A stretch of 64,000 nt of DNA. It comes from Candidatus Latescibacterota bacterium (GTDB taxonomy: Bacteria > Latescibacterota > UBA2968 > UBA8231). The notes beneath the pieces are model-generated. The model was not told where the DNA came from, did not search any database, and was given only the letters and a program-made list of their open reading frames with translations. Shown here in pieces: positions 19,081 to 45,797 of this stretch (positions are counted from its first letter, which is position 1; every line of letters starts with the position of its first letter). The stretch spans positions 6,208,001 to 6,272,000 of the forward strand of contig OZ241867.1 in NCBI GenBank assembly GCA_965203175.1. The letters run 5' to 3'. A program made the position numbers and the translations under genes.

Positions 19081-19172
19081 ATCCCCTTGTTTTTGTTTCT
19101 CAGCGCACAGATAATCAGTAGTTTGGCCCGGAGCACTTGAGTCACCTAAGTCTTCAGGACAGAAAAGGAAAG

Positions 19173-20183
19173 ATGACAGGCATTGGAATTATAGGTGCGG
19201 GAGGAATTGCCGAGCACCATTTGAGGGCGATCTCTCGACATCGTCAGGCCAAGGTTCTTTGCCTGGCCGACACTGACTTGAACAGAGCACAGAGCTTGGC
19301 GGACAGATACGGAATCAGTCGGGTTACAGTTGACCCGAATAGGATCCTTCTGAACGCGGAGGTCAATACGGTCATTATTGCTCTGCCCACATTTCTTCAT
19401 TATGAATGGCTGTTGCGATGTGCGAGAGCCGGCAAAGATATCCTCACCGAAAAACCTCTGTGCCGAACTGTGTCGGAAGGCAAACGCGTTCTTCGCACAT
19501 GTACCAAGCACAACGTTCGTCTTGCGGTAGGATACATGAGACGCTTCTCGCCGGCGCGGTTGAAAGTACAGTCGTTGGTGCAAGCCGGAGCGTTGGGCAG
19601 ACCCGTGACTTGGCAGATCTCGTCATTCGGGCCGCGCTCAGACTTCTATCGCGGGCCCGGAAATTGGATGTGGGACAGACGCAAAGGCGGTGGTCTTGTC
19701 ATGGATGGCTCCATTCACGATTTCGACTTCGCGTGCTGGATCCTAGGACAACCGACAAAAATGTTCGCACAGTCCTCCCGGATATCAGATGTCGCGACAG
19801 CGCCGACGCAGGCACACGCTCTTGTCACTTTTGCAGACAGCGATCGTCTTGCGTACAGCGCTGCATGGCAAGAGGGTGATTTCAGCCCGAGTCAGCGCTC
19901 GTCGTGTATCATCGGATCTGAGGGGACCATCACTTTGGATTCTGATTTTGAATTCACTTGGCATTGTGTCGGCAAAAAAGAGCGACATTTCAAGTGGAGT
20001 CCTGACAGACTCCGCCCGTCAGGTATGGGGGCTTCCTGGCTCTTCTACCGACAACTGGACAGTTTTGTGAGGAAGCAGAACGATGTGAGCCTGGCAACTG
20101 GCCAAGAATCTCTCGCCAGCCTGTGGATAGCAGAAAAGATCATTGACGCGGGCCCAGACGGCAGGCTCTGCTACTACAGATGA
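19173..20183 (+). CDS. Gfo/Idh/MocA family oxidoreductase
   Basis: GIIGAGGIA, TEKP, GYMRRF, GGG-MDGSIH-FD. Confidence 0.85.
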   Translation: MTGIGIIGAGGIAEHHLRAISRHRQAKVLCLADTDLNRAQSLADRYGISRVTVDPNRILLNAEVNTVIIALPTFLHYEWLLRCARAGKDILTEKPLCRTVSEGKRVLRTCTKHNVRLAVGYMRRFSPARLKVQSLVQAGALGRPVTWQISSFGPRSDFYRGPGNWMWDRRKGGGLVMDGSIHDFDFACWILGQPTKMFAQSSRISDVATAPTQAHALVTFADSDRLAYSAAWQEGDFSPSQRSSCIIGSEGTITLDSDFEFTWHCVGKKERHFKWSPDRLRPSGMGASWLFYRQLDSFVRKQNDVSLATGQESLASLWIAEKIIDAGPDGRLCYYR

Positions 20184-21208
20184 CTATGATAACTGAGAGG
20201 AAAGGCCGAACCAATCCACTCTTCCTAATAATGGATCTGAGAGAAAAATCAGAGCGGTGGCGACAGGTTGTCAAAGAAGAAGATATATGGCGACCAGCTA
20301 TTCAGCAGATATGCGATCGCGCCGGTATAGTCTATAGATCGATACGGACGGATTTTCATTCTAACAACGCTGTTTTTCTACTCGATCATCACTACGTCGT
20401 AAAATTGTACGCCCCGGATCAACAAGGCTCTTTCCGCGCTGAAGAAGGGGCTTTACGCATTTTAGCGACGACCCCGGTCCTGCCAATCCCCCCCTTGTTA
20501 GCCGTCGGCGATCTTAACGGTTTGCTCTCTTGTCCTTATATAGTTATGGGTATGGTATCGGGCATGCCTTTAGACGAGCTTCGAGGAAGATTTGGCTCTG
20601 GCGATCTCGTCAATATTGCAACACAGTTAGGCACGGTTATGGCTCGTTTTCACGGTAGTTATTTTTCCGGCAAATCTCAGATTGGACAAGCATATGGGGC
20701 CTGGAATACGCTTTGTGAAAATCGGCGGCACCAATTCATTGAAAATCTTGGACAGACCGTTTCTTTCCCCTCTTGCCTTAAATCAGAACTGCGTGCATTT
20801 GTTTGTTCTACTGAGGTGGATACGTATCTGAATACTCCCCATATTTTGGTGCACGGCGACTTGACGTGTTACCATATTTATGTGGAAGAGCAGGCTGGTC
20901 ATTGGCGAGTTTCGGGAATCATTGATATGGGCAATGCGCTGGCAGCCCCACCTGAATACGATTGGACAGACCTGTGGTTTCAGACACTCGAACGAGATGT
21001 CCAAGCATTGATCGCTTTTCTAACTTCGTACCAATCAGCCCTCAAAATAGACGAAAATTACCGTCGCCGACTGATGGCCTTTTTCCTACACAGTTGGGAA
21101 GCAGCCCCTAAGTTGGCTGCGCTCCTTGAATCAGAGAATGCCCCAGACATTAAGGATATTGGAGCATTGCTGGATTGGCTTTGGCCAAGAGAATTGGAAA
21201 CTTCATGA
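20180..21208 (+). CDS. Aminoglycoside phosphotransferase (APH)-family kinase
   Basis: VVKLY, LVHGDL...HI, GIID-G, YD. Confidence 0.8.
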   Translation: MTMITERKGRTNPLFLIMDLREKSERWRQVVKEEDIWRPAIQQICDRAGIVYRSIRTDFHSNNAVFLLDHHYVVKLYAPDQQGSFRAEEGALRILATTPVLPIPPLLAVGDLNGLLSCPYIVMGMVSGMPLDELRGRFGSGDLVNIATQLGTVMARFHGSYFSGKSQIGQAYGAWNTLCENRRHQFIENLGQTVSFPSCLKSELRAFVCSTEVDTYLNTPHILVHGDLTCYHIYVEEQAGHWRVSGIIDMGNALAAPPEYDWTDLWFQTLERDVQALIAFLTSYQSALKIDENYRRRLMAFFLHSWEAAPKLAALLESENAPDIKDIGALLDWLWPRELETS

Positions 21209-21229
21209 ACATGGAACAGTTTTCACTTC

Positions 21230-21305
21230 GGCTAACATCAAACCCACGGCTCCGCTTCGCTCCGCCAAACCCCTTCGGGGTTCGTGGGTTTGAAAAACGT
21301 TAGCC
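21230..21305 (+). repeat. attC-like site 1
   Basis: GGCTAAC ... TCAAACCCACG/CGTGGGTTTGA stem ... GTTAGCC. Confidence 0.85.
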
Positions 21306-21323
21306 GAAAATACCCAAGGAAAA

Positions 21324-22109
21324 GTGACTTCATCGATGAATCAAATTCTCTCTCAAGAGGACATTGAACGCTTCCATCTAAACGGGTACGTCCGCCTCGA
21401 ATCGGCTTTTGATCGCACACTTACGCATCGCGTGATGACGTACATATGGGAAATACTTGAGCAGAGATACGGCTTCGATCGCGAAGATCCCTCAACCTGG
21501 AATCGCCCGACAAAAGGACTCAGCAAGATACTGCAAGCGAACCGAGACCTTTGGAATATTGGCGACCAGAAGATCACCTATGCGATCACCCAGCTCCTAG
21601 GTCCTAGCTGGAAATCACCCCCCCACTGGGGCACCTTGCTCCACACGATGCCTGAATCCCCCGATATGTGGAATATTCCGACGGGATGGCACTGGGACTC
21701 AGATCCGTTGGAAATCATAAATGGGAAAGAAGGTCTGTTCATCTTTATTTTTATGTCCCACGTCTTACCGCAGGGGGGTGGAACGCTTATTCTGGAGGGA
21801 GCCCATAAGCTCCTCTTGCGATATCATTGCCGGAGTGTAGAGGCTAAGGGGGGCCACAGTACATTCTTCAAAGCGCACCCATGGCTGGTGGATCTACGGA
21901 ACAACACAGGACCGATGAACGAACGAGTTGCTCGTCTGATGGAGCAGAATGCAGAGATTGAGAATATAAAGGTTAGGGTTGTTGAACTTACGGGAGAGCC
22001 AGGCGATGCCGTGCTCTGCCATCCGCTGATCGTACACGCTCGGTCTCAGAACGCTTCAAAAGTGCCTAGGTTCATGTTGGCCAAGCGAATATGGCGCGAA
22101 CAAGCCTAG
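21324..22109 (+). CDS. Phytanoyl-CoA dioxygenase family protein (cassette gene)
   Basis: F..NGYV-L, WHWD (HxD), GGGTL-LEG-H, GEPGDAVLCHP--VH; start may be ATG 21336. Confidence 0.8.
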   Translation: MTSSMNQILSQEDIERFHLNGYVRLESAFDRTLTHRVMTYIWEILEQRYGFDREDPSTWNRPTKGLSKILQANRDLWNIGDQKITYAITQLLGPSWKSPPHWGTLLHTMPESPDMWNIPTGWHWDSDPLEIINGKEGLFIFIFMSHVLPQGGGTLILEGAHKLLLRYHCRSVEAKGGHSTFFKAHPWLVDLRNNTGPMNERVARLMEQNAEIENIKVRVVELTGEPGDAVLCHPLIVHARSQNASKVPRFMLAKRIWREQA

Positions 22110-22142
22110 GCTGGCAGCCTCGACTTGTATGATGATATCTTC

Positions 22143-22229
22143 GACTAACAGCAGCACTTGTGGCTCGGGCCTGACGCCCCTCGACCTAACTTGCTTGCAG
22201 CAAGTTCACAAGTGCACCAACCGTTACGC
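22143..22229 (+). repeat. attC-like site 2
   Basis: GACTAAC agca GCACTTGTG ... CACAAGTGC accaacc GTTACGC. Confidence 0.85.
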
Positions 22230-22246
22230 GAAAAATGTCATTCTTC

Positions 22247-22336
22247 GCGTAACAAGCAGTTACCACTGCGCCGCATACGCGGCTTGGCCCTGTGGGCAAC
22301 CTCCTTCGCAGGTTCAGTAACTGTAAAACGTTATCT
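22247..22336 (+). repeat. attC-like site 3 (closes a gene-less cassette)
   Basis: GCGTAAC aag CAGTTAC ... GTAACTG taaaac GTTATCT. Confidence 0.85.
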
Positions 22337-22376
22337 GCCATGCGTTTTCGCCTGATTGGTCGAAGGGGTTACAGCT

Positions 22377-23195
22377 ATGGAAACTTCCAAAATCGCCTTT
22401 GTGAGAGACCGGAATGGACTCTTTGATATCTTTACTATGAATGAGGACGGAACAGATCAGACCAACATCACGCGCACCCCGGATTACGAGAAAGACCACG
22501 TAAACTGGTCTCCCGATGGCACGCGTATCGCCTACTGCGACCGACGCCATGGCAAGGGCGAAATTTACGTAATCAACGCCGATGGAAGCGAACCAAGGCG
22601 ACTGACCCACAATTCGGCCCCTGACCTTCGTTCTCACTGGTCGCCCGACGGCCAGACGATCATTTTTTGCACGGATCGTCACGACAACGTCGAGATCTAT
22701 GCCATGAACAGCGACGGTTCTAACCAGAGGAATTTGACCAATCATCCGGCGTATGAGTTGGAATCAACTTTTTCCCCAGATGGCTCTAAGATTGCCTTCA
22801 CGACCGACCGCGATGGTAAGACACAAATTTATGTGATGAAACCGGATGGAAGCGAGCAAAAACGGTTGCACGTTTCTCAGGGCAACGATGAAGATCCTGC
22901 CTGGTCACCGGACGGCAAGTGGATCGCCTTTAAGTCGGACCGCGATGGAAAAAGATCGCAACTCTACGTCATGAGAGCGGATGGGTCGGATCCTAGACGC
23001 CTCACCAACGTTGAGGGCGGCGGCGCTATGGAACCCTCATGGTCACCAGATGGCTCGGCGATCAGCTTCACGGGCGACTGGGAAGGCCGCCAGCAAATCT
23101 ACCGGATAGATATCGACGGAAAGAATTTGACTAATCTCTCTAATAGCTCGACGAAGGATTTTGCTGGTGATTGGGGACCAACGATCGAGATTTGA
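22377..23195 (+). CDS. TolB-like PD40/WD40 beta-propeller repeat protein
   Basis: Five WSPDG/FSPDG..IAF-SDRDG..IYVM--DGS repeats. Confidence 0.88.
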   Translation: METSKIAFVRDRNGLFDIFTMNEDGTDQTNITRTPDYEKDHVNWSPDGTRIAYCDRRHGKGEIYVINADGSEPRRLTHNSAPDLRSHWSPDGQTIIFCTDRHDNVEIYAMNSDGSNQRNLTNHPAYELESTFSPDGSKIAFTTDRDGKTQIYVMKPDGSEQKRLHVSQGNDEDPAWSPDGKWIAFKSDRDGKRSQLYVMRADGSDPRRLTNVEGGGAMEPSWSPDGSAISFTGDWEGRQQIYRIDIDGKNLTNLSNSSTKDFAGDWGPTIEI

Positions 23196-23205
23196 GCTTC
23201 GGCAA

Positions 23206-23430
23206 ATGACAGAATCGTTTGTTGATATTGGAAATCTCCGTCTGTGGACAATCGTGTATGGCAGACAGGATATCAGGCCGAGTTGGCCAGTCGAGCAACT
23301 TGCTCAACTGTTGCCGAACGCGCATTTGGAGTTTCTTGAGAATGCCCATCACCAAATTTGGCTTGGGCATGAAGAATTGCTCCAAGGTTTCTTGAGGGAA
23401 TTTGTAAAGAAATTTGCCCACAGCACATAA
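23206..23430 (+). pseudogene. Internally deleted alpha/beta-hydrolase remnant, copy 1
   Basis: Short N-terminus fused to a hydrolase-like C-terminus (IVYGRQD-RP...LA-LLPNA-L-FLENA-H-IWL); no nucleophile elbow; 74 aa. Confidence 0.55.
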
Positions 23431-23507
23431 CACGTCCGTGCCCGGCTTCGGCGCTGGCGCGCCTTTGCCCAACCGCTACGCGGTTCGGCACGGCGGAAAC
23501 GTTGCAC
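23425..23507 (+). repeat. attC-like site 4
   Basis: ACATAAC acgt CCGTGCC ... GGCACGG cggaaac GTTGCAC. Confidence 0.85.
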
Positions 23508-23539
23508 GCCATCCGGATGAAGATGGAAAGGACGAGAAC

Positions 23540-24022
23540 GTGGCGAAATCCTGTCCTGAATGCTTAAGTGATGTTCCTGAGAGCGCATTTGTATGTCACG
23601 CTTGCGGCCGAAGGATCGTGGGCAAGGAGTGCCCCGAGTGTTGTGAAGTTTCGAAAGAGACTGCAAAACGGTGCGCCTATTGCGGCCACAACTTTGAGCG
23701 CAAGGAGAAGATTGCCAAAATTGAACCATTTAGTGCAAAGGCCTCATTGCTGGCCACGCTCTTCCTCCGGATGCGTTTGATCCCACAGGAGATTTTGCTA
23801 ACTCCAGAGAAGATCATCATCCAAACGTGGGGATTCTTTTGGCTTAGCAGGTCGGACGAAGACATCCCTTGGGAGAAAATCGCCGGCTATCACTACCACG
23901 CAGGATGGTTCTGGGACAGTCTTGAAATCCAGACACGCGGCCAGACAGCCAATAGAATACGATGCCTTCAGAAACCAGACGGTCTAAGAATCAAGGAAAT
24001 ACTCGAGCAAATGAAAGAGTAA
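23540..24022 (+). CDS. Double zinc-ribbon protein with putative bacterial PH-like C-terminal domain, copy 1
   Basis: Four CxxC pairs, then IP-EKI...G-F...LEIQT-G pattern; GTG start after AAGGA. Confidence 0.7.
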   Translation: MAKSCPECLSDVPESAFVCHACGRRIVGKECPECCEVSKETAKRCAYCGHNFERKEKIAKIEPFSAKASLLATLFLRMRLIPQEILLTPEKIIIQTWGFFWLSRSDEDIPWEKIAGYHYHAGWFWDSLEIQTRGQTANRIRCLQKPDGLRIKEILEQMKE

Positions 24023-24058
24023 TTAGCGTTATTAATACAGCCAACAGTGGAGGTCTAA

Positions 24059-24544
24059 ATGCCTGAGGAAAAAACCGAAGTCACCGCTACCGCCAACATA
24101 AGCTTACGCGAAGTTAATGCCGACACTGTAGGGGCAGTCTGCCGCCTGAGCAACACCCTCACGGAGCCCAAGAAGAACTTTGTTGCCAACAATGCCTTCT
24201 CCATCGCCCAAGCATACTTCGAGCCCAAGGCCTGGTTTCGCGCCATATACGCTGATGAAGAGCCAGTTGGATTTGTGATGCTCGTCGACGATGCCGAGAA
24301 ATCTGAGTATTTCCTCTGGCGCTTCATGGTCGCCGAGCCTTATCACGGCCTGGGTTTCGGCCGCCGCGCCATCGAGCTGTTGGTGACATACGTCAAAACC
24401 CGTCCCCAGGCCAAGGAACTGCTTGTAAGTTGTGGGCTCGGCGAAGGGACTCCTGTCGGTTTCTACGAAAAATGCGGTTTTGTCCGTAATGGCAAGACCT
24501 ATGGTGAGGAAATCGGCCTGACGATGCGACTAGTCACTAGCTAG
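24059..24544 (+). CDS. GNAT family N-acetyltransferase
   Basis: FVA-NA-SIAQA, RFMVA--YHG-GFG, FYEKCGF; GGAGG RBS. Confidence 0.88.
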   Translation: MPEEKTEVTATANISLREVNADTVGAVCRLSNTLTEPKKNFVANNAFSIAQAYFEPKAWFRAIYADEEPVGFVMLVDDAEKSEYFLWRFMVAEPYHGLGFGRRAIELLVTYVKTRPQAKELLVSCGLGEGTPVGFYEKCGFVRNGKTYGEEIGLTMRLVTS

Positions 24545-24559
24545 CTTTGGAGGCATATT

Positions 24560-25180
24560 ATAGACTCAGAAGTCACCCTCGTCAGTGTCCACATTCCCAA
24601 AACGGGAGGGATGACGCTGTTGAGTATTTTACAGCAAGTGTATGTTGGTCACCTACAACTCGCCTACGAGGATGAGCGTGATACGATAGTCGAAAAACCA
24701 CTCTGCTATCACGGACATGCTGTGCTGGATAAGTTTGCCAACAATTTGGCCGCATTGCCCAATGCGAAATGGATGACGTTTCTGCGCGACCCCCTTCGAT
24801 CTGCGGTCTCGCTTTACCACTACGGTGTTAAACATGGGACCATTCGCGAAATGGGGCTGGACCAGTGGCTCACAGGAACGGAGATGTTCTGCTGGCCCGA
24901 TCCTCCCGCATACAACCACAACCGCTTCTCGAAATGGATCGGGCGTGCGAGAACCTCATGGGATCAGTTTGACCTCATCGGACTCACAGAGTACTTCGAC
25001 GAATCGATCCAACTCGCTTCGGAAGTGCTTGGATGGCCTGATGTCGAATACACATCGCAGAACGTGGGGACGTACGGCGATCCCAATTTGAATGAATCGA
25101 CTATCAATGTTTTTCGTCGGTTGAATTCAGATGACTACATAGTGTATGATAAAGCGATAAGGCGATTGCAGGGCCAATAA
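24560..25180 (+). CDS. Sulfotransferase family 2 protein (non-canonical or mutated ATA start)
   Basis: HIPKTGG PAPS motif lies in frame upstream of ATG 24611; FLRDP--SAVS-Y; G-TE-FDES; N--D--Y. Confidence 0.75.
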   Translation: MDSEVTLVSVHIPKTGGMTLLSILQQVYVGHLQLAYEDERDTIVEKPLCYHGHAVLDKFANNLAALPNAKWMTFLRDPLRSAVSLYHYGVKHGTIREMGLDQWLTGTEMFCWPDPPAYNHNRFSKWIGRARTSWDQFDLIGLTEYFDESIQLASEVLGWPDVEYTSQNVGTYGDPNLNESTINVFRRLNSDDYIVYDKAIRRLQGQ

Positions 25181-25244
25181 GATGCTGCACTGGACGAGGA
25201 ATCCGCTGCGCTTCTATCCCCGCCGGTGAGTTTGAACGGTAGAT
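25172..25244 (+). repeat. attC-like site 5 (canonical type, degenerate cores)
   Basis: GGCCAAT aagat GCTGCAC ... GTGAGT ttgaac GGTAGAT. Confidence 0.7.
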
Positions 25245-25278
25245 CCTACTTCATCAAGAGAGTTGAGTAGCCTTTGCC

Positions 25279-26328
25279 ATGAACGAAGTCCTGAGGGCCC
25301 TGGATCGCGAACAGCTCAAGCGTGCTTTCAGCAATCACTTCGGATGCTCGATCGCAGAGATCAAAGTCCGAGAGTCGAGGCCGTTGCCCCCAAATCCTGG
25401 ATTGTCTGGGGACAAACTGATCTGCGAAGTCTCGATGCGGTCAGGAGGAAGAACCTTGGCTCCAGTGGAGTGCTGTATCAAGCGGATGGTAACGCCCGAC
25501 GACCGCGAAGCCCATCTGTATCGATCGCTGCACGACTTGCAGTTCCCGTTGCCCGAGTTCTATGGGCACTATCTGGATGAGAAGGGCCGGGAGGTGCTGA
25601 TCCTGGAGTACATCCCGCGTGTAGGGTACTCCTTTCGATCAGATGAGGAGACAACGGAGTGGCTTTCGCTCATGGCTCGATTCAACGCCATGCCACTGAG
25701 TGCCTGCGATGTTGATTCACTAAGGCAGCAGGATTGGGGAGTTTGGCTCATCGATGGGAAGGTTGAGACCGAGTTTGAAGAAGTGATATGGTGCGCGGCT
25801 GAATCCTTGATCGGCGACGAGTTGGCCGCGTTCTGCCAAGCTCAGGCGTCCAAGATCCGATCTCTTAGTGGCTTCGCCAGAAGACTTCACGCCGTGGTAA
25901 TGGACATGCCTAAGGCGCTTTGCAACGAGGAGCTTCATCCGGGATGGCGATCAGACGGAACACTTGTGGCATTCGATCTGCACAGTACAAGACCGAGTCC
26001 TCGGTTCATGGACATCTCGAACTACATCGGCGCACCCGAGTCGGGATCATGGCTAGGGGCCCTGTCACCTCGGATGAAGTGGGCCCGCGTCTACGGCGAA
26101 GCGTTGGCAGTTGCGGGCGGCCCATCCGTCGACGCGGCGACCATTCTACACGAGTCACGTCTTGTTTGGATGGCATTCGCATTCCAACTCGCATGGTGCC
26201 TTCAGGTCGCTATCGACGGCAAGATCAACTGGTCGGAGGATCTAGAGAAGAACAAGCTGGGGGCGCGCAGAGGGATCCTGATGCGGCTTGCCTATTTAAC
26301 AGAGGCTCAAGAATGGGCCCTGGTGTGA
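25279..26328 (+). CDS. Putative phosphotransferase/kinase-fold protein
   Basis: IKR...REAHLY, P-PEFYG, LILEYIP, L-AFD; Brenner motif divergent. Confidence 0.55.
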   Translation: MNEVLRALDREQLKRAFSNHFGCSIAEIKVRESRPLPPNPGLSGDKLICEVSMRSGGRTLAPVECCIKRMVTPDDREAHLYRSLHDLQFPLPEFYGHYLDEKGREVLILEYIPRVGYSFRSDEETTEWLSLMARFNAMPLSACDVDSLRQQDWGVWLIDGKVETEFEEVIWCAAESLIGDELAAFCQAQASKIRSLSGFARRLHAVVMDMPKALCNEELHPGWRSDGTLVAFDLHSTRPSPRFMDISNYIGAPESGSWLGALSPRMKWARVYGEALAVAGGPSVDAATILHESRLVWMAFAFQLAWCLQVAIDGKINWSEDLEKNKLGARRGILMRLAYLTEAQEWALV

Positions 26329-26372
26329 AGAGCCTCAGTGGAACATCTTCTGAGATCCAACGGAGGCGAACT

Positions 26373-26495
26373 GTATAACATGTGTTGGAGCAACGCTAAA
26401 GCTCAGTGGCTCTGAGTCGTTAGCTGTCCACCTTTCCCGTTCGGAGATTCACAGTCGGGTGTGCATCGTGTCAGCGGCTCAACACTACGTTAATG
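26373..26495 (+). repeat. attC-like site 6 (canonical type)
   Basis: GTATAAC at GTGTTGGAGC ... GCTCAACAC tac GTTAATG with an extra G in the left arm. Confidence 0.8.
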
Positions 26496-26505
26496 GATGT
26501 GAATC

Positions 26506-26650
26506 CTCTAACGCCCCATTTACGCTGCGGGGCATTCGCCCCTTGGCCCTAACGGGCACATCCTCTCTCTGTCACGGCGCTTGCCTTCGGCAACCTCCTC
26601 GCCAGCCCTATGCGGGACGAGAGGCGTCATAAATGGTTGAAACGTTAGCC
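26506..26650 (+). repeat. attC-like site 7 (long; closes a gene-less cassette)
   Basis: CTCTAAC gcc CCATTTA ... TAAATGG ttgaaac GTTAGCC. Confidence 0.8.
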
Positions 26651-26669
26651 GACACTCAATGATTTGCTT

Positions 26670-27342: not shown

Positions 27343-27378
27343 GAAATCCTATCACTCTTTTAAAGAGTGGATTGAACC

Positions 27379-27816: not shown

Positions 27817-27830
27817 GAGATAGGTACATC

Positions 27831-27905: not shown

Positions 27906-27909
27906 GAAA

Positions 27910-37612: not shown

Positions 37613-37628
37613 CTGCAAGACGTTGGCC
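37588..37628 (+). repeat. Orphan right half of attC (site-3 type)
   Basis: GCAACCTGCTTCACAGGTTCAGTAACTGCAAGACGTTGGCC versus site 3 GCAACCTCCTTCGCAGGTTCAGTAACTGTAAAACGTTATCT. Confidence 0.8.
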
Positions 37629-37809
37629 GCAAGCACCCCGTAATGGACACTGCCCATTACGATAGAATTTCACACTACAAAAAACTTGACTGGGTTGCAT
37701 CTATCTCCTTGCTTGGCGTTAAAACGCCAGAAATTCCCGAGGATTCAAAGCTCCCCCGCCGCAGGTGCGGATATGAGTTCGCTGGACATCCAACCCCAAA
37801 GGAGTAGAA

Positions 37810-38823
37810 ATGACAGCAGAAGCAAGACCGGACGAGAGCACCCATGGAAAGGTAATGCATGCGGCTATTCAAAGCGGTGAGCGCGAGGCAATTGCGCGTT
37901 ACCGTAACGCGTTCCCGATTCTCGAGCCCTTCAGCGATGCGGCTATCCAAGAAGGTGCGACGCCACACAACTGTTCCATCGCCCTTGCCCGGGAACGTGG
38001 TTTTGAGGGTCCGTATCATCTTAATCGATGCTTTTCAGAGAACATCTCTGTCGCACCCCGCGAGACGTTTGCAGCGCTTAAAGAAGCGGTAAAGGCGTTG
38101 GATCTCAGCACGGCCGCCGAGATCCTCGATGCGTTTCCCTATCTCGCGAGGGCACGGGTCTACAACAAGGATCTTGGCGTCGAGCGTGGGGCGTCACTTC
38201 TCCATCTGGCGATGCCACGATGGGCAAAGGACGGCGGTGATCAGACGACCGACCAGCACATTGCGATGGCGTCACTCCTGATCGATCGCGGCACCCCAAT
38301 AAACACGATTGGGGATGGCGGCGAGACACCGCTCGGTTACGTCGGCTGGTTGGGCATGAAACGATTCGCCCGGTATCTGTTCGAACGCGGCGCAGACCCC
38401 ACCGTGACTACTGAGTGGGGTTTCGACGCGCTCGGCACCATCGCCGACCACGGTCACGTCGATCTCATGGAGATCTTCGCAGAGGCGGGCGTCTCGTTGA
38501 CGCCCAGGCATCTCGTTCAAGCGCAGATGACCGAACGCCTAGATGCGCTGGAGGACGCGGATCTACATGCGAGATGCGATATCGGCCATTTTGATGGCGA
38601 GCGGGGCACGTTGATGCACGTTGCGGCAAACGAGAACCTCCCGGCGATGATCGAGTACCTGCACAAGCGGGGCGTTTCGCTTGACGACCTGGACAACTTC
38701 GGTCGCTCACCAGCGCAGTTCGCCGTCGAACGAGGCAGGCTCGAAGCCCTACGCGCGTTAGCGGACTGTGGTGCGACGCTCGATGCCGAGGCAACCCAGT
38801 TCCTTGATGATCGACGGTCTTGA
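37810..38823 (+). CDS. Ankyrin repeat protein
   Basis: GASLLHLA, GETPLG, GADP, GTLMHVAA, GRSPAQFA. Confidence 0.85.
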   Translation: MTAEARPDESTHGKVMHAAIQSGEREAIARYRNAFPILEPFSDAAIQEGATPHNCSIALARERGFEGPYHLNRCFSENISVAPRETFAALKEAVKALDLSTAAEILDAFPYLARARVYNKDLGVERGASLLHLAMPRWAKDGGDQTTDQHIAMASLLIDRGTPINTIGDGGETPLGYVGWLGMKRFARYLFERGADPTVTTEWGFDALGTIADHGHVDLMEIFAEAGVSLTPRHLVQAQMTERLDALEDADLHARCDIGHFDGERGTLMHVAANENLPAMIEYLHKRGVSLDDLDNFGRSPAQFAVERGRLEALRALADCGATLDAEATQFLDDRRS

Positions 38824-38906
38824 GTTTGGTACAAGATTGACAATCGAAACTGCTCCCTAACCGGTGTGTCCGGCAACACCCGTGCAGCTTGAGCCGATAT
38901 GTAGTT

Positions 38907-41003
38907 ATGAACGCACTGAAACCAGCTAAGATCCAAGCCGCGCTCGAAGCCGTCGAAGCCGGTGACGCCAAGAGGCTCGAGCCACTTCTGAAAACGAACC
39001 CGGCACTCGTCCATCAGATCCTTGAGCACGACGACCACAGCGTAATGCTCAGGCCGACACTGTTGCACCGGACCAACGCCAAGGCCGATCGGGAGCGACG
39101 GCCCCGCAGAAGGAACAAGGGTGACCTGGACTGCGCCCAACTGCTCATCGACTACGGTGCCGACATCAACAGCCGGGTCCTGGACTCTCCGCCGCCACTG
39201 GAGATGGCAGCGTGGACGCGCCATCACGATCTCTTCGAGCTGCTGCTGGCCAACGGGGCCGACGTAGAATGCTACACCGAACTGCCCCCGATCGAGGCTG
39301 CGGTCGCCACGGCTTACGGCAGGGACATGTTCAAAAGCCTAGTGTCCACTGGCGCGCAGTACGACATCTCTCATACGCTTCGACTCGGACTGCTTCGGGA
39401 GACGCGGACACTCCTCGAGGCCGACCCTAGTCTCGCTAACATCGAGACGGACCACGGTCTCCCGCTCAATCTGGCGGTCAGCAAGCCGGGCAGCTACAAG
39501 CCAAGTCCGGGATTATTCAAGCTGCTGATCCGGTTTGGCGCCGACATCCACGCCGAGGATCGGTTCGGCCTGACGCCGCTGAAGGCAGCCCGCCTGCCCG
39601 GCAACGACAAAATCGTGCTGGCTTTACTCGACATGGGCGTAGAGGACGACATTTACGGCGCCCTCCTGGCGCGCGACGAGGATAGGGCCAGGGCAATCCT
39701 GCGGGCTGATCCCTCACAGGCACACCCGGTCGCCACTTGGCCCGATCGGGGGCCAACGCCCCCCATCGTCTGGGCGGTCTGGTCCGGCTCGACGCGCCTC
39801 GTGGAGATGATTCTCGAGCACGATGTCGTCCTGAACTTGTCGGGGAATCCGCTCGGGATCGCCATCGAATACGGTTACGACGAGATCGTCCGTCTCCTGC
39901 TCGATCACGGCGCTTCGCCCGAATGCGTCGACTGCAGCGGCTGGGCGGGCGTTCGCACCGGCAAGTTCTGGGACCGGGTCCCGGGGGGCGGTCCTGCACC
40001 CGATGACGATCCGCCGGTCTCCGTGCCGCTCTACACGGCGCTACGCAACGGCACGACCGCCGCCGTGGAGATGCTGCTGGAGGCGGGCGCCGATCCGAAC
40101 TCCACGCTGACCATGTGGTCGGGCCTGCAATGGCCGGCGCGCTCCGGCGACCTGGACAGGGTCCGGTTGCTGCTGAAGCGGGGAGGAAATCCGGCGAGCC
40201 ACTGCGCTCGGCGGGCGCTTCGACTCGCCACTCGACTCAGCCAGGGAGCTATGGTGGAGCTGCTCGTCACGCATGGTGTCGACGTCGAGGCGGCGACGGA
40301 CTCGGAACTCGACGAGGAGAAGATCCAGCGGACAGCGAACGAGTCGACGCGTGGCCTCCTGGAGGAGCTCCGCGGGATCCTCGGTCTACCCAAGCGGGAA
40401 CGCGCCCGCATCCTGCGGCTGCGGGCACAGCTCATCAATGCGGTCATCGACGGAGACGCGCGAAGCCTGCGCGACGTGCAACAGCAGGCACCTGAGCTCC
40501 TTGAGCGACCTATGGTCAAGCACGACCTGCTGCGCCACGCCGCCATGGCGGGTCACGGCGACATCGTCGACGTCCTGGTCGAGCACGGGGCGCCCATGAC
40601 GATCCAGACCGCCTCGGCCCTCGGACGCCTCGATCTCGTCGCATCGATGCTCGACTCAGACCCGACACTCGCCAACGACGACCCGCCGGCACTCAAGATC
40701 GCCGCGCAAAAAAACCACCGGGCCGTCGCTGAGCTGCTTCTAGACAGAGGTGCGGACATCGACCGAGTGTCGAGTAACTATCAGCCTACTGCCCTTCATG
40801 TGGCGGTCCGCAGTCGTTCGATCGATGTGCTCAAACTGCTTCTGTCGCGGGGTGCGGACGTGACCATCCGCGAGACGGGCGACCACCACCACACGCCGCT
40901 TGGCGTGAACTGGCCCCTCACGGTACCGGAGGGCGAAGAGATTCGCGATCTTCTGATCGCGCATGGGGCGAAACCCGAGGAGCAGCACTCCTATGACGCT
41001 TGA
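38907..41003 (+). CDS. Large ankyrin repeat protein
   Basis: Many LL--GAD and TPL/TALH repeats over about 700 aa. Confidence 0.88.
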   Translation: MNALKPAKIQAALEAVEAGDAKRLEPLLKTNPALVHQILEHDDHSVMLRPTLLHRTNAKADRERRPRRRNKGDLDCAQLLIDYGADINSRVLDSPPPLEMAAWTRHHDLFELLLANGADVECYTELPPIEAAVATAYGRDMFKSLVSTGAQYDISHTLRLGLLRETRTLLEADPSLANIETDHGLPLNLAVSKPGSYKPSPGLFKLLIRFGADIHAEDRFGLTPLKAARLPGNDKIVLALLDMGVEDDIYGALLARDEDRARAILRADPSQAHPVATWPDRGPTPPIVWAVWSGSTRLVEMILEHDVVLNLSGNPLGIAIEYGYDEIVRLLLDHGASPECVDCSGWAGVRTGKFWDRVPGGGPAPDDDPPVSVPLYTALRNGTTAAVEMLLEAGADPNSTLTMWSGLQWPARSGDLDRVRLLLKRGGNPASHCARRALRLATRLSQGAMVELLVTHGVDVEAATDSELDEEKIQRTANESTRGLLEELRGILGLPKRERARILRLRAQLINAVIDGDARSLRDVQQQAPELLERPMVKHDLLRHAAMAGHGDIVDVLVEHGAPMTIQTASALGRLDLVASMLDSDPTLANDDPPALKIAAQKNHRAVAELLLDRGADIDRVSSNYQPTALHVAVRSRSIDVLKLLLSRGADVTIRETGDHHHTPLGVNWPLTVPEGEEIRDLLIAHGAKPEEQHSYDA

Positions 41004-41007
41004 TGGA

Positions 41008-41066
41008 TGGATCTGTGGCTTCCCCTCCGCTTCGCTCCGGGCTCACAAACCGGCGAACCGTTAGCA
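41008..41066 (+). repeat. Partial attC (R'' lost)
   Basis: GGATCTGTG ... CTCCGCTTCGCTCCG (as in site 1) ... CACAAACC ggcgaacc GTTAGCA. Confidence 0.65.
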
Positions 41067-41100
41067 GACATAAATAACGGCTATAAAAGGAACAAAGACG

Positions 41101-41781
41101 ATGAGTACGCCGCCGGACGACCACGGATAGGGCCCTGAAGTTAAGCCTCGCTCAGGACACAGCGGCCGCCCCCGTATCGACAAGATCCTGAAAGAGGCAC
41201 GACGCGGAGATTTAGAGTCCGTTAAACGACACCTGAACCAGGATCCGACGCTGCTGCTGGCCAAGAGTGGCGGGCACAACAGGACGTTTCTGTGGGAAGC
41301 AACACGCGGCAATCGGGTTGAAGTCGTGCAGTTTTTATTACAAGCGGGAGCCGATCCCAATGTCCCGGGGCGGACCCGGTCGGAGATACCGGTGCTCCTA
41401 AAGCCCTACTGTATTGCACGACGCTATCGCCGATTAGAAATTGCCGAGCTGTTAGTAAAAGCAGGTTCCGTACTGGATATCTACTCGGCGTGCTTTCTGG
41501 GTGACACTGACTGCGTGCAACATAGCCTTAAGAGTGAGCCATGCTTGTTGACCAAGGAACAGGAAGACGACTCCGTCTGGCGTGTGACCCCCTTACACTA
41601 CGCCGTGGCGGGAGGCCACGAGCAACTCGCCCGATGGCTGATCAGGGAAGGCGCACTAGTGAAGCCCTATACCCGGCTGTTATGTAATACGGCCGTGCGA
41701 ATGAAACACGCGGACCTGATACCCGTGCTGGTACAGGGGGGTGCGGACCGAGATTTGGTCAAAAGCTGGGGCAAGATTTGA
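41101..41781 (+). pseudogene. Ankyrin repeat gene interrupted by in-frame TAG at codon 10
   Basis: ATG 41101 after AAGGAA; TAG 41128-41130; frame continues as ankyrin (ARRGDLESVK...RTFLWEATRGNRVEVVQFLLQAGADPN). Confidence 0.7.
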
Positions 41782-41858
41782 CGCAGTTCCTACCCCAGCA
41801 ATCCATTTACAGTGCATACTGGACAGCTTGTAGAACTCTCCTCATGGGAAGAGTCGCC

Positions 41859-42665
41859 ATGTCTGAAGAAGATATCAAACAGCTATCCTCAATGATCGAG
41901 GCGAGAAGGAAAAACGACACTAATTCAAGCTTTTTTTATCACGCATGGGTAGTGCCAGAATACAAGTGCCTGTGCATGACGATACCAAAGGTAGCCTGTA
42001 CGACGGTCAAGACCGTGCTTTATCACTTAGCAGGAAATCCCGTTCCGACGGATGGGAGCGATATACACGATCACGATATCGGGATGTTTTTAGGTCAGTA
42101 CAGCGTTGCTGATATCGTAGAGATCATCTCGTCGCCTGATTGGGTAAGATTCTGTTTTGTGCGCAATCCGTATCATCGGTTGTTTTCGGCTTACAAGTCG
42201 AAGATTGGAAACACGTGGGATACCCAATATGATTGGCTACGAGATGCGATACGAAAGAAGTATGACTACCCCATCCGGGACGGACGTCGGTCAGGTATGG
42301 TAGCCTTCGCTGATTTCGTTCGGTTTCTAGTGGATTCAGATGCAAACGTGCGTTACGAGCTACATCCAGATGCTGTTTTTGACGGTCACTACAATGTTCA
42401 GTCCCGCATTCTGATGCAAGACTTGATTCCGTACGACTTTGTCGGCCGCTTTGAAAAGCTGGAAGGTGGATTACGACAGATCTTGACACACCTAGGTGCA
42501 CCCGAGGAAACCATCGCGCTTTCCTCTGAAGTTCGCAACCCAACGATCAAAGTACCACTTGCTACGGCCTATAGTAGTGAGTTAGCAGATCTTGCCTATG
42601 AACTCTACAGAGAAGACTTCGAGGCTTTTAGCTATGATAGGGATAGCTGGCTGTTTGATTCATGA
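41859..42665 (+). CDS. Sulfotransferase family 2 protein
   Basis: IPKVACTT, FVRNPY-RL-SAY, YDFVGRFE, Y--DFEAF-Y. Confidence 0.88.
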   Translation: MSEEDIKQLSSMIEARRKNDTNSSFFYHAWVVPEYKCLCMTIPKVACTTVKTVLYHLAGNPVPTDGSDIHDHDIGMFLGQYSVADIVEIISSPDWVRFCFVRNPYHRLFSAYKSKIGNTWDTQYDWLRDAIRKKYDYPIRDGRRSGMVAFADFVRFLVDSDANVRYELHPDAVFDGHYNVQSRILMQDLIPYDFVGRFEKLEGGLRQILTHLGAPEETIALSSEVRNPTIKVPLATAYSSELADLAYELYREDFEAFSYDRDSWLFDS

Positions 42666-42733
42666 AGCCATACAACTGACGAACAGCAGGAGAATCGGAT
42701 TCTGACTTCTTGCGTGGATCAGAGCGCAACGCC

Positions 42734-42820
42734 ACATAACAGCAGCACTTGTGGCCTGGGGCCGACGCCCTTCGACCGAACTTGCCTCCGGCAAATTCAC
42801 AAGTGCGCGACCCGTTATAT
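42734..42820 (+). repeat. attC-like site 11 (close relative of site 2)
   Basis: ACATAAC agca GCACTTGTG ... CACAAGTGC gcgaccc GTTATAT. Confidence 0.85.
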
Positions 42821-42857
42821 GCAATTATTTTGGTAATCCTATATAGCGAGACTCGAA

Positions 42858-43469
42858 ATGATCTGTTCAAATTGCGGTTATTCATCGCGCCACCAAGAGA
42901 TTGTTGGAGAGAATTCCACAGTAGTCTGCCCCTCATGCAAGCTAGAGAATGGGGTATTTCACCTCCCTCTCTTTGTAGTGACAGGAGGCGGTGGATCTGG
43001 AAAATCCACCGTGGCGTGTGGGCTGAGAGGTCGGCTTGATACGTGTTTGGTGCTTGAAGCAGATCTTTTCTACCCAATTCAAGAGAGCACCAAGTCCAAT
43101 GATGACTATTGGAGCTACTTGATCTTTCTCTGCCGAGAGCTCATGCAGAACGGAAAGCCGGTGGTTCTTTTTGGCTGGGTGAATCCACGGCAGTGCGAAG
43201 CAAGTGAAGACATCGGCTACTTTTCATCTGTACACTACTTGGTGCTCGTCTCTGACAAGCACACACAAGAGGCTCGAATTCGAGGTCGATATCCCACATC
43301 AAGAGAGGAACCTCCAACAGACGAATTCATCGCGATGGCACTAGAGGCTACTCAAATCCTGAGAGATGAGGCTGACGAGAGGAGCCGAGTGACTATATTG
43401 GATACTACCGGTATGAGCGTCGATGACACGCTGGCAGAGACCGCTTCTTGGATCTCAGCCAGCCTCTAA
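42858..43469 (+). CDS. P-loop kinase (AAA family) with N-terminal zinc ribbon
   Basis: CxxC...CxxC, then VTGGGGSGKST, LDTTGMS. Confidence 0.75.
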   Translation: MICSNCGYSSRHQEIVGENSTVVCPSCKLENGVFHLPLFVVTGGGGSGKSTVACGLRGRLDTCLVLEADLFYPIQESTKSNDDYWSYLIFLCRELMQNGKPVVLFGWVNPRQCEASEDIGYFSSVHYLVLVSDKHTQEARIRGRYPTSREEPPTDEFIAMALEATQILRDEADERSRVTILDTTGMSVDDTLAETASWISASL

Positions 43470-43568
43470 TCTGCGCAAATTCCTTTCATTCTGGATATAT
43501 CGCGTTTCCGCTATTCAATTATTGATTGGATTAGCGACAAGGTGACGTCTGAATTGGAACTCCCCTAG

Positions 43569-44477
43569 ATGCAGTATGAGATCTACTTCCGCACCAGCCG
43601 TGGAGGAATTGGCATTCCGTACGAGCTGGCGAAGACGGAGTTCTTGGCCGTCTACCACCGGTTTGGTCTAGAACTCAAGAAGGACCTGCGGGCACGGCAT
43701 CGGATGTCGATCGAACTGCCACTCATTCCCGATCAAGTCGCAGCACTCGCAGGCGACCTCGGGTTTACTGAAGCAATCGTCGGCCAACACTACGAGCCCT
43801 TCCGTGGAGAGGAGATCTCTGCCGTTCGGAGTGGACGGTGGCTTCTTGGTTGGATTCGCCTTGGTGACTACAAGGTGCACCAGACAGAGGTTTACGTTCA
43901 AGACAAGCAAGCGCTACTGGAGGATGCCCCGAGCAACCGCCAGTTCGAGATCGTCCAGAATGGAGACAGGCGTGTTGTGTCAGGACAGAACTGGCATCGA
44001 GCCGTGTCTATTCTAGATGCCCGGTTTCTGTACAACATTGCTGATCCAAAACCAACGGATGTCGTCTTGGATCCATTTGCCGGATTTGGCGGGCTCGCCC
44101 TTGAAGGGAGACGTCGGGGACTCACAGTCTTCGCATCCGACATCGATGATAGCCTGTCTCCAGGTCTCTCAGTGAACTTTCCGAACTCGTATGTAGTTGC
44201 CGATGCCAGCCATCTGCCAATACGAACCGACCACTTCGATCTGATCGTCACAGAACCGCCCTTCCGGAGTTCCTGCCGTCAGGCCGTCATGGACTCGTTG
44301 CCTGAGCTGTTGCGCGTCGTGAAGCACACGGGACAACTCATTCTACTAATTGCCATGGATATGTGCGATAGGATTCATGGGCAGTTCGAGCAGATGGGAG
44401 CGAAAGTCGATGTCGTCGGTATCATGCCCCGCGGAGCTCGACGGAAGTGTCCAGTATTGAAGATCACTCTCGGCTGA
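43569..44477 (+). CDS. SAM-dependent methyltransferase (Trm11/UPF0020-like amino-MTase)
   Basis: VLDPFAGFGG, SDID, ADA--LP, IVTEPPF. Confidence 0.75.
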   Translation: MQYEIYFRTSRGGIGIPYELAKTEFLAVYHRFGLELKKDLRARHRMSIELPLIPDQVAALAGDLGFTEAIVGQHYEPFRGEEISAVRSGRWLLGWIRLGDYKVHQTEVYVQDKQALLEDAPSNRQFEIVQNGDRRVVSGQNWHRAVSILDARFLYNIADPKPTDVVLDPFAGFGGLALEGRRRGLTVFASDIDDSLSPGLSVNFPNSYVVADASHLPIRTDHFDLIVTEPPFRSSCRQAVMDSLPELLRVVKHTGQLILLIAMDMCDRIHGQFEQMGAKVDVVGIMPRGARRKCPVLKITLG

Positions 44478-44700
44478 ATGATCCCGTTGCGGGTGGGATC
44501 GCGATGAGTAAACCAACCTAAAGTGAAGGGAAACATCAGATGCCTACACGCCACATCGAAGCAGTTACGATCAACCAAGACACATCTTGTTTCGTTGAGC
44601 TTTTGCGGAGGCGGAAAAGTGTACGACACGATGGGGCTGGCGACCCAAGTCATGAAGACTCATGGTCTCTAATTGGTACCAAGATTGGAACTGACACACC

Positions 44701-45675
44701 ATGGAACAGACCAGAATCGGCCTGATCGGAGTGGGACGTTTCTGTCCTAATTATCACATTCCGAATCTCATCCAGCGGAGGGACGTGGAGATCACAGCAG
44801 TCTGTGACATCTCGCAGGATCGTCTGGACAACCTGCCGGAGAGTCTGTGCGCAAGCCAGACCAGTCGGGATTACCGCGACCTGCTTGACCCCAATCTCGT
44901 GGACGGTGTCGTCGTCAGCACCCCAAATCAATATCACTATGAACAATGTAAGCTCGCGCTGGAAAGGCGCATACCCGTTCTCGTCGACAAGCCGACGACA
45001 GTCACAGTAGCACACGCCAAAGAATTGACCACTCTCAGCCAGTCACAAGAATGTCTATTAATGACAGCTTTCACGCGGCGTTTCATGGCGAGCACAGAGT
45101 ATGTACGCAGCCAGTTAGCCTCTAGTTCCGATGATATTCAGTACATGACGGCGGTTCAGCGCAGAGCCGGCGGTAACCTAGCAGACGGCGGTATGCTGCA
45201 TACGCGGACGGTACATATCCTTGATGTACTGCCCTGGCTCGTCGGACAGCGTATCGTGGCCGTCGCTGGGACCGTCGCCTATGAAGAGGCAGGTGGAGTT
45301 GAGGATTTTGTCGACGTGCGGCTGGATTTTTCTGGCGGATTGTGCGCGCACCTGCTGTGTATCAAAAACTGTGACGAATACGAGGATGAGGTCACGGTTT
45401 ACAGCGCACGAAAGAGCTTCCGCCTTGAACGCGACCTGCTTTTCACAATGGCGCAGCCCTCTGGATGGGAACCTGTCGACCCCCCCCCTCACCAAGGATC
45501 GTTGACGGGTTACTTCGTCGATGTGATCCAGGGGGAGAAGGTCATCGAGAGCGCGCCCGGTGTGGACCCGCACAGCCGCGACGGACTACAGGCTCTAAGA
45601 GTGGTCGAGGCGATTCACGAGGCAGGAAGGACCGGCAGGTTGGTTGCCGTACCTCTGTCGGAGAGCTCGAAATGA
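44701..45675 (+). CDS. Gfo/Idh/MocA family oxidoreductase
   Basis: GLIGVG, STPN--H, VDKP, RRF. Confidence 0.85.
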   Translation: MEQTRIGLIGVGRFCPNYHIPNLIQRRDVEITAVCDISQDRLDNLPESLCASQTSRDYRDLLDPNLVDGVVVSTPNQYHYEQCKLALERRIPVLVDKPTTVTVAHAKELTTLSQSQECLLMTAFTRRFMASTEYVRSQLASSSDDIQYMTAVQRRAGGNLADGGMLHTRTVHILDVLPWLVGQRIVAVAGTVAYEEAGGVEDFVDVRLDFSGGLCAHLLCIKNCDEYEDEVTVYSARKSFRLERDLLFTMAQPSGWEPVDPPPHQGSLTGYFVDVIQGEKVIESAPGVDPHSRDGLQALRVVEAIHEAGRTGRLVAVPLSESSK

Positions 45676-45797
45676 ATAAAACAGCCCAAAGATCGCGTTA
45701 AGGTGAGGGGGCTGCGTTGCGGCCGATTTCTGGTTTTGGGCGGTTTAAAGAGACCCTACATCCCCAGACAAGGTTTACAAAGCCGCGAGACATTAAT

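Follow-up and report, generated by a model that had tools for sequence, protein, structure and literature searches.

Introduction

Integron integrases (IntI) are set apart, in the literature and in software alike, by an additional domain. This insertion of about 25 residues carries helix I2 and is conserved within IntI (available part of PMC2095811), and IntegronFinder defines IntI by a profile of the insertion region plus PF00589 (PMC4889954, in the portion available). Canonical attC sites, as presented in the accessible part of PMC5027507, fold better from the bottom strand and have two to three extrahelical bases near L'' and a central spacer of 5-6 nucleotides (nt) on each arm, with the unpaired extra bases of the bottom strand lying opposite the AAC triplet. 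Surveys report that most clusters of attC sites lacking integron-integrases (CALINs) show no trace of an integrase, and that the Firmicutes are nearly without complete integrons and hold some CALINs (PMC9024848; also PMC4889954, to the extent of its available text). Here we analyze a window of 64,000 nt (the whole stretch from position 6,208,001 to 6,272,000 of contig OZ241867.1, assembly GCA_965203175.1) from a Candidatus Latescibacterota bacterium, in which all genes between about 19.1 and 45.8 kb, directly behind a tRNA-Val, lie on one strand and are interspersed with attC-type palindromes. This region is probably the cassette array of a chromosomal integron that has been left without its recombinase gene and most of its attI site, and its cognate recombinase was probably related to IntI and free of the hallmark insertion.

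The open-access and bioRxiv literature, supplements aside, yielded no description of attC arrays whose serving integrase does not have the additional domain. No integron paper on Latescibacterota was found in the open-access and bioRxiv literature either, in keeping with an initial annotation of this DNA that had called the lineage poorly studied and the region a CALIN.

A family of attC-type sites on a single strand

Nine complete attC-type sites are supported in the window, every one on the + strand (Table 1), and all nine are bounded by R'' (RYYYAAC) and R' (GTTRRRY). A plain AAC..GTT scan combined with folding returned 79 candidates on both strands across the window and was too noisy to use. 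Alignments of the sites with MAFFT were inconsistent with their structure, with RNAalifold yielding only a 5-pair inner hairpin on them, so a covariance model was instead seeded from the two most similar sites and then iterated. The first model (R1), built only from this near-identical pair (22140 and 42731) and searched against the whole window with filters off, recovered four independent + strand sites at E 6e-11 to 1e-3; the second-round model (R2), built from the two seeds and these four, added the sites at 23422 and 22244 in the window search and the site at 26503 in genome and multi-locus searches. Rfam at its gathering threshold matched only three tRNAs in the window.

The initial annotation had counted 11 complete and four partial palindromes. 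Nine complete ones are supported by the models; a short palindrome at 26370-26428 was considered as a tenth site and rejected, being visible by eye only and matched by no model. Two of the partial sites are recovered by profile search, one of them weakly (Table 1), and the other two, at about 37575-37620 and 33425-33450, were seen by eye only. The five pairs of decamers that the annotation quoted are all found at the positions it gave for them.

As no more than 150 of the 2104 first-look candidates were scored when cmsearch was run on the whole genome, an nhmmer search with a profile of 50 sites was added over the full genome, which is designated G000 (6.58 Mb); other G codes denote genomes of relatives and L codes fetched loci. 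At E<=0.01 this search gave 20 matches, nine of them within a 21.6-kb stretch of the array and all on the + strand. The remaining 11 form clusters at 3.547-3.565, 2.002-2.004 and 1.801-1.806 Mb, with single matches at 3.139, 1.431 and 0.742 Mb, and no tyrosine recombinase gene adjoins any of these 11 sites in G000. Each cluster is confined to a single strand. The distribution, in few small clusters and not dispersed in both orientations, is not that of repetitive extragenic palindromes (REPs) or bacterial interspersed mosaic elements, and the genome-wide scatter that the annotation had named as a refutation of its proposal is absent.

Folding and geometry of the sites

The sites share a folded structure that is maintained by compensatory change. 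In an alignment of 49 distinct sites (window plus nine genus genomes), which was fitted to the model and so flatters the counts, 87.4% of cells are standard-paired, a value that none of 500 shuffles attains (shuffle mean 69.5%), covariation scores 0.444 compared with 0.162 in shuffles, pairing in the L stem amounts to 92.7% and eight of its nine pairs show compensatory changes, and two small inner hairpins covary in 4/4 and 6/6 pairs. The inner TAAC/GTTA pairs are nearly invariant, and each of the four inner R pairs is intact in 43-47 of 48 sites. At the three outer R positions pairing is lost in 20-31 of 48 sites, as expected for chimeric integrated sites, in which the part of R' past the crossover belongs to the next cassette.

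Like canonical attC, the sites are predicted to fold better from the bottom strand than from the top (44-45 of 50 genus sites; 79-87 of 114 sites elsewhere). Their geometry is otherwise distinct. The R''-L'' spacer measures 3-4 nt in 49 of 50 genus sites and the L'-R' spacer 6-7 nt in all 50, the 3' spacer being longer by 2-4 nt in 49/50 genus sites and in 112 of the 114 sites from other genomes. The two L arms match in length, leaving no extrahelical bases, in 45/50 genus sites and in 74 of the 114 others, among which seven have an extra base on the L'' arm and 33, all from Paenibacillus, on the L' arm. Genus sites therefore have neither the two to three extrahelical bases near L'' nor the spacer of about 5-6 nt on each arm that mark canonical attC, and their extra spacer bases lie on the arm that also holds the AAC triplet, not opposite it.

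Cassettes differ in order among close relatives, with breaks at G|TT

To compare the locus among relatives, 10 genus genomes were fetched at the tRNA-Val and 30 were searched for the gene of the right flank. The left flanking gene and the tRNA-Val are conserved in the genus, and eight of the 10 genomes have sites of this family behind that tRNA and on its strand: ten sites in G012, seven in G023, six in G022, three each in G011, G001 and G002, two in G028 and one, weak, in G010. No site matches were found behind the tRNA in G013 and G005. Detached arrays beside the M42 aminopeptidase gene, which forms the right flank in the window, add eight sites in G011 and three in G001, the two genomes in which the flanks are about 450-500 kb apart. 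Elsewhere, the M42 gene is separated by 3 kb (G013), 13 kb (G023), 27 kb (G000) or 33 kb (G005) from the left flanking gene, which is the neighbour of the tRNA-Val.

Gene order within this interval differs among relatives. Cassettes of the window recur at 96-99% identity in a different order, whereas the flanks are only 86-95% identical; in G012, for example, units of the window follow one another as 24.6, 21.7, 31.5, 22.3, 23.3, 25.3, 27.9 and 34.5 kb. The comparison of the tRNA-Val to M42 interval that the annotation had proposed thus revealed the cassette shuffling it anticipated. The breakpoints coincide with the crossover that had been predicted: shared blocks end at R' GTT (e.g., 21298-22227), and the cassettes that start at 26645 and 29039 lie behind attI in G002 and G011, respectively, and behind an attC in the window, with the break at G|TT in both. 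The annotation had also claimed that the end of each cassette complements its own start, and in six single-cassette intervals (distal 6 nt) 31 of 36 distal positions of the cassette starts indeed pair with the R'' of the same cassette, as against 22 of 36 with the R'' of the site at which the start now stands.

Further joins are found in metagenome contigs from four public runs of four studies, such as 22332>32894, 26345>21295, and 32577 or 32594>22233; joints were used only with at least 30 letters on the shorter side, and uncovered stretches were not used. Public runs from 11 studies, with sponge or marine metagenome as their label, also contain near-identical cassettes. Collectively, the folded sites, the altered order and the position of the breaks support an array of integron type, formed by site-specific recombination at G|TT.

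An attI-like junction and the remnants of a recombinase gene

In six relatives the conserved stretch behind the tRNA runs up to ..CAGTAG, and once past the TTA that follows, their sequences differ. About 12 nt of this attI-like site (19110-19121) remain in the window ahead of the first cassette, so the statement in the initial annotation that no attI is recognisable does not hold when relatives are compared. An equivalent end is present at intact recombinase loci in three other Latescibacterota, reading ..ATAG|TTA in L092 and ..CGTAG|TTA in L078 and L086, the latter two being alike up to this point and differing after it.

Between the tRNA and the attI-like site, sister genomes retain decayed pieces of a recombinase gene on the + strand, which match residues 274-309 (G012 and G022, 62-67% identity) and 194-235 (G011, 43% identity) of a recombinase that is intact in relatives, the remnant DNA being 71-74% identical to the 3' ends of intact genes. 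These pieces indicate that the integrase was lost in place. The annotation had offered an integrase acting in trans and one since deleted as equal alternatives; deletion in place is the better reading of the two. Three continuations follow one and the same point, 19109/19110, which lies 66 nt past the tRNA: one is the attI remnant, another a recombinase remnant from the middle of the gene, and the third a remnant of the recombinase C-terminus. They are found in different members of the genus and also at loose contig ends in metagenomes.

The absence of an intI gene noted in the annotation extends from the window to the genome as a whole: no recombinase was found among the ORFs (open reading frames) of the window by Pfam, and G000 gave no match above the cut-off of TIGR02249, the IntI model. 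The combination of intI, attI and cassettes that makes a complete integron is missing from G000, and relatives keep gene remnants and the full attI-like site. With nine attC-type sites and no integron-integrase gene nearby, the array belongs operationally among the CALINs (at least two attC, no such gene nearby), as had been proposed.

Intact members of the recombinase family lie beside arrays of the same site family

The array-linked recombinases have TIGR02249 as their best curated match, at 240.9 and 206 bits in two stretches, below the 265-bit cut-off, with model positions ~179-234 unmatched; the true IntI of G038 scores 464.8 bits. The archaeal XerA model follows (NF040815, 215 bits, cut-off 220) and then XerC (184) and XerD (178), all below their cut-offs. 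The closest solved structure is VchIntIA (PDB 2a3v, E 2e-43, again in two stretches), ahead of the Xer proteins. The recombinase consists of PF13495 (N-terminal SAM-like) and PF00589 domains, and the motifs of the catalytic domain are invariant in an alignment of family members with the IntI of G038. At the place where that IntI carries its specific insertion, all four aligned members are without ~31 plus 10 residues, and the matched DNA lengths equal the query span in 79 loci, leaving no room for an extra stretch of ~35 residues. The title of a 2001 paper by Messier and Roy reportedly calls the IntI-specific insertion necessary for activity, and in the 2006 structure paper helix I2 is said to contact the extrahelical bases. 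Public databases name members of the family mostly 'XerD' or 'tyrosine-type recombinase/integrase'.

The association of this family with attC-type sites was surveyed in those 79 loci, which were collected by querying a single genome for each species with the family and which include at most 10 kb of flank. At E<=0.01, the window-derived model has 128 site matches, spread over 34 of the 79 loci; 29 loci have at least two sites. Latescibacterota, Gemmatimonadales and Paenibacillus all include intact homologues with arrays of this site family next to them. In every locus all site matches are on one strand. The sites are downstream of and co-oriented with the recombinase gene in Paenibacillus, Gemmatimonadales, L078, L086 and L092, and upstream of and divergent from it in L060-L064, three matches in L059 being the exception. 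In the Paenibacillus locus L093, ten sites follow directly behind a 379-residue recombinase, each after an ORF, and nine of the ORFs are co-oriented with the recombinase gene. These relatives suggest that the array comes from an apparently undescribed branch of integrons, whose integrase is without the hallmark integron-integrase domain.

Some members of the family, at L058:154-1278 (G017), L055:14302-15351 (G042) and L056:15595-16134 (G052), carry or are preceded by ~70 additional N-terminal residues, which have a conserved GRRW..W.IP-type motif and no Pfam match. One Holophagales metagenome-assembled genome has three recombinase copies with identical match statistics on three contigs (L129, L130, L131), none with attC matches. 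Some hosts may carry the family on a multicopy mobile element and not as part of an integron.

Alternative origins of the array

Apart from the array, G000 contains a degraded classical integron at 1.294 Mb (C1:1293742-1298320; L022 9742-14320). It comprises an intI remnant of 64 N-terminal residues, encoded on the - strand and scoring 75.7 bits against positions 1-64 of TIGR02249, an IS3-like element (L022 10975-12107) inserted in a cassette gene and, as judged by eye, three classical attC sites of canonical shape and one half site. G015, of the same genus, has a split canonical intI. Since G000 once had a canonical intI, with classical attC beside what is left of it, the array could be an ordinary CALIN whose cassettes were placed by a canonical IntI, either the one at 1.294 Mb or another in trans, with the insertion-less recombinase a bystander; CALINs are common and most have no nearby intI pseudogene (PMC4889954, in its available portion). 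We consider such an origin unlikely. The window-derived model has no match on the classical sites at E<=5, so two types of site coexist in this genome; moreover, the gene pieces found between tRNA-Val and attI match the insertion-less family and not canonical IntI, and the same site family stands beside intact insertion-less members in 34/79 loci from several phyla.

Even less probable is that the array is still active in G000 through a Xer-like or other tyrosine recombinase of its own. In its favor, the genome has four PF00589 tyrosine recombinase genes (and only these), all outside the window and two of them XerC/XerD-like, the array-linked family does almost as well against Xer models as against that of IntI (XerA 215, XerC 184, IntI 241 bits), and metagenome contigs show alternative junctions. 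These junctions, however, come from other populations and need not arise in G000, where most of attI is gone and many attC are decayed. The two best candidates look like housekeeping XerC/XerD, an XerD-like match (~80-87 bits, positions 243-300) being found in 30/30 genus genomes, and a tblastn search of G000 with two intact members found no copy of the array-linked recombinase, the best matches being the Xer-like genes at only 32-39% identity.

Although the region begins 79 nt past a tRNA and has a lower G+C content than its flanks, and although G005 has an island at the same tRNA, the idea that it is a tRNA-targeted genomic island or prophage remnant, with terminators or REP-like repeats for palindromes, has very little probability. 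There is no tRNA 3' repeat at the right border (as annotated; the last 24 nt of the tRNA occur once with up to three mismatches allowed), there are no phage genes among the 26 ORFs (Pfam), and there is no integrase beside the tRNA. The idea is already largely refuted by the 20 undispersed matches genome-wide and by the independent movement of repeat-bounded units with breakpoints at G|TT, which terminators or REPs leave unexplained.

The island of G005 (L042+L043) is 31 kb long. It has a phage-type integrase beside the tRNA-Val, while at its other border the end of the tRNA is repeated over 86 nt, and no attC matches were found in it. Within the genus, this tRNA is thus targeted by two kinds of element.

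A probable decayed integron and the points that weigh against it

We favor the view that the array is what remains of a chromosomal integron with an insertion-less integrase. The ancestral layout in the genus would have consisted of the tRNA-Val, a tyrosine recombinase gene on the same strand, some 200-250 nt ending in attI (..CAGTAG|TTA), and promoterless cassettes in a common orientation, with a folded attC-type site at the end of each. If it acted as integron enzymes do, the recombinase would have integrated circular cassettes at attI and removed or rearranged them between attC sites, crossing over at G|TT. Judging from the remnants and from the intact homologues beside arrays of the same family, this enzyme was probably related to IntI and without the insertion. 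In G000, a deletion would then have taken the recombinase gene and all but ~12 nt of attI, and several attC would have decayed, so that the array would now be a frozen store of accessory genes, including APH-type kinases, GNAT, NUDIX, sulfotransferase and ankyrin proteins and a MacB/FtsX-type permease. The 26.6-kb low-G+C region of G000 would thereby be explained as a frozen stock of accessory genes, reshuffled between close strains.

Several points weigh against this reconstruction. The mechanism of recombination is proposed by analogy, and the alignments from which the site geometry was taken had been fitted to a model with that same geometry. The attI remnant of the window is only ~12 nt long, and the sharing of one left end, 19109/19110, by three different deletions is unexplained. 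At E<=0.01, 45 of the 79 recombinase loci are without a site, many of them being short contigs, and the recombinase family may also serve other elements. Even at E<=0.1 there are no sites at the intact recombinase locus of the same-genus G017 (L058), the 3' side of which runs off its contig, or at that of G042 (L055). The unit boundaries at ~24022, 24545, 25240, 31515, 32577 and 34545 have no attC though the units move independently in relatives, which indicates that deletion, fusion or homologous exchange also reshaped the array. Finally, the higher identity of cassettes than of flanks could reflect homologous recombination and not an integrase.

Gene content and borders of the array

The 26.6-kb region has a G+C content of ~0.50-0.54 across ~19.1-45.8 kb, compared with 0.60-0.65 in the flanks, and includes two G+C-richer blocks at 34.5-36.7 and 38.9-41.0 kb. 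Two more stretches of low G+C (0.49-0.57) lie outside the array, at 1001-4000 and 56001-58000 of the window. The roughly 25 co-oriented genes first annotated correspond to 24 full ORFs and two gene fragments (19137-45675), every one on the + strand. By Pfam, they encode four APH-family kinases, GNAT, a sulfotransferase and a methyltransferase; a NUDIX hydrolase, a PhyH-like dioxygenase and two GFO_IDH_MocA oxidoreductases; and a PD40 propeller, three ankyrin proteins and the MacB/FtsX-type permease, with six ORFs having no Pfam family.

The first cassette (19122-21299) has no match in the 10 relatives compared (blastn), and the two parts of the composite cassette at 22331-23501 are separate units in G012. 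At the distal end, the GFO_IDH_MocA oxidoreductase gene at 44701-45675 adjoins the M42 gene in G013, G002 and G011. The M42 aminopeptidase has no match at E<=1e-60 in 20 of the 30 genus genomes, and in G022 most of its gene has been removed by a deletion; the right border of the hotspot is thus itself unstable.

Table 1. Coordinates of the array, its attC-type sites and its borders within the 64,000-nt window
Feature	Position	Strand	Evidence and remarks
tRNA-Val (anticodon GAC)	18967-19043	+	ARAGORN, Rfam; left neighbour of array conserved in 10 genus genomes compared
G+C-rich hairpin followed by T run, putatively a terminator	19050-19073	+	Conserved in relatives; directly 3' of tRNA
Putative attI-like site remnant	19110-19124	+	Presumed crossover G19121/T19122; match ~12 nt
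First cassette, two genes	19122-21299	+	GFO_IDH_MocA oxidoreductase 19137-20183; APH-family kinase 20180-21208 (Pfam)
attC site 1	21227-21308	+	R1 E 6e-11, R2 E 2e-15
PhyH-like dioxygenase cassette	21300-22223	+	ORF 21324-22109; at other positions in G022, G011, G012, G001
attC site 2	22140-22232	+	R1 seed
107-nt ORF-less cassette	22224-22330	+	Closed by attC site 3
attC site 3	22244-22339	+	R2 E 0.0016
Composite cassette	22331-23501	+	PD40 beta-propeller 22356-23195; gene fragment 23161-23430
attC site 4	23422-23510	+	R2 E 1.4e-4; nhmmer E 5e-10
Block of at least four units without attC between them	23511-26502	+	Double zinc-ribbon (to 24022), GNAT 24059-24544, 189-aa ORF 24611-25180, 349-aa ORF 25279-26328; Pfam, comparison with relatives
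attC site 5, long form of 151 nt	26503-26653	+	cmsearch E 6e-4; nhmmer E 4e-9
197-aa ORF cassette	26645-27336	+	No Pfam match; homologue is first cassette behind attI in G002
attC site 6	27249-27345	+	R1 E 1e-5
NUDIX hydrolase cassette	27337-27899	+	ORF 27379-27816, Pfam
attC site 7	27828-27908	+	R1 E 1e-3, R2 E 4e-12; R' is GTC instead of GTT
Cassette with ORF ending at 28965	27900-29038	+	No Pfam match; also in G012
attC site 8	28957-29047	+	R1 E 4e-8
MacB/FtsX-type permease cassette	29039-31514	+	ORF 29063-31507; first behind attI in G011; no terminal attC here
APH-family kinase unit	31515-32577	+	Common to 7/10 relatives compared
Second copy of 23185-24022	32590-33412	+	98-100% identical; its attC 32829-32898 truncated, 15 nt lost
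Partial site, truncated duplicate	32829-32898	+	nhmmer E 4e-7
Units without intact attC	33479-41003	+	APH-like 33479-34399; FlgD_ig/CHU_C 34551-36713 (G+C 0.63); 276-aa ORF; two ankyrin proteins 37810-38823 and 38889-41003
Partial site, 3'-half attC remnant, weak	41036-41068	+	nhmmer E 0.04, profile positions 57-92
Ankyrin protein and sulfotransferase	41326-42665	+	41326-41781 and 41778-42665, Pfam
attC site 9	42731-42823	+	R1 seed; 84% identical to site 2
Distal genes without attC	42858-45675	+	AAA-type kinase-like, methyltransferase, GFO_IDH_MocA oxidoreductase 44701-45675
Right border of variable region	45765-45797		Homology with relatives resumes
M42 aminopeptidase, right flank	45798-46922	-	Pfam

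Implications

Three elements of this picture were missing from the initial annotation: the non-canonical cognate recombinase, the non-canonical geometry of the attC-type sites and the separate classical integron at 1.294 Mb. Beyond the window, it is conceivable, with somewhat less than even confidence, that a widespread and unrecognised branch of integrons extends across Latescibacterota, Gemmatimonadales and Paenibacillus, in which an insertion-less integrase and its attC sites have co-varied, the sites having no extrahelical bases and a spacer ~3 nt longer on the arm of the cleaved triplet. As the additional domain is absent, programs and annotation would call such integrases XerD-like and their arrays CALINs. 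If this is so, the Paenibacillus case would represent complete, array-bearing integrons in Firmicutes, the host range of integrons would be wider than reported, and part of the puzzle posed by CALINs would be an artefact of definition. Strand choice and site recognition in integrons could then work without helix I2, and the branch would constitute a natural experiment in which a folded single strand is read without either that helix or extrahelical bases.

Comparison with known systems

Much of the array is shared with described integrons and CALINs (PMC4889954), including co-oriented and mostly promoterless cassettes, each closed by a RYYYAAC/GTTRRRY imperfect palindrome, the crossover at G|TT, sites that are more alike within a lineage than between lineages, cassette content that varies among close relatives and, in G000, no integrase nearby. 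Unlike in those systems, 45/50 L stems here have no extrahelical bases, the spacers measure 3-4 versus 6-7 nt, and the lost gene lay upstream of attI, was co-oriented with the cassettes and came from an insertion-less family.

The orientation recalls the 'reverse' integrons of Treponema denticola, in which integrase and cassettes are transcribed the same way (10.1101/2020.05.09.085589, in its available part). This orientation is found here in the genus remnants, in L078, L086 and L092, and in the Paenibacillus loci, whereas the family members of L060-L064 are divergent from their arrays. To our knowledge, the Treponema IntI carries the IntI domain.

The array-linked recombinase resembles IntI (TIGR02249; VchIntIA, PDB 2a3v) in that IntI is its best family and structure match, with the same domains and conserved catalytic motifs, and differs in scoring below the 265-bit cut-off and in gaps of ~31 and 10 residues at the insertion. 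XerA, XerC and XerD are of similar length and domain composition and score close behind IntI; unlike Xer modules, however, which act with 28-nt duplex sites of dif type, this recombinase is partnered with folded palindromes of 81-172 nt that close cassettes.

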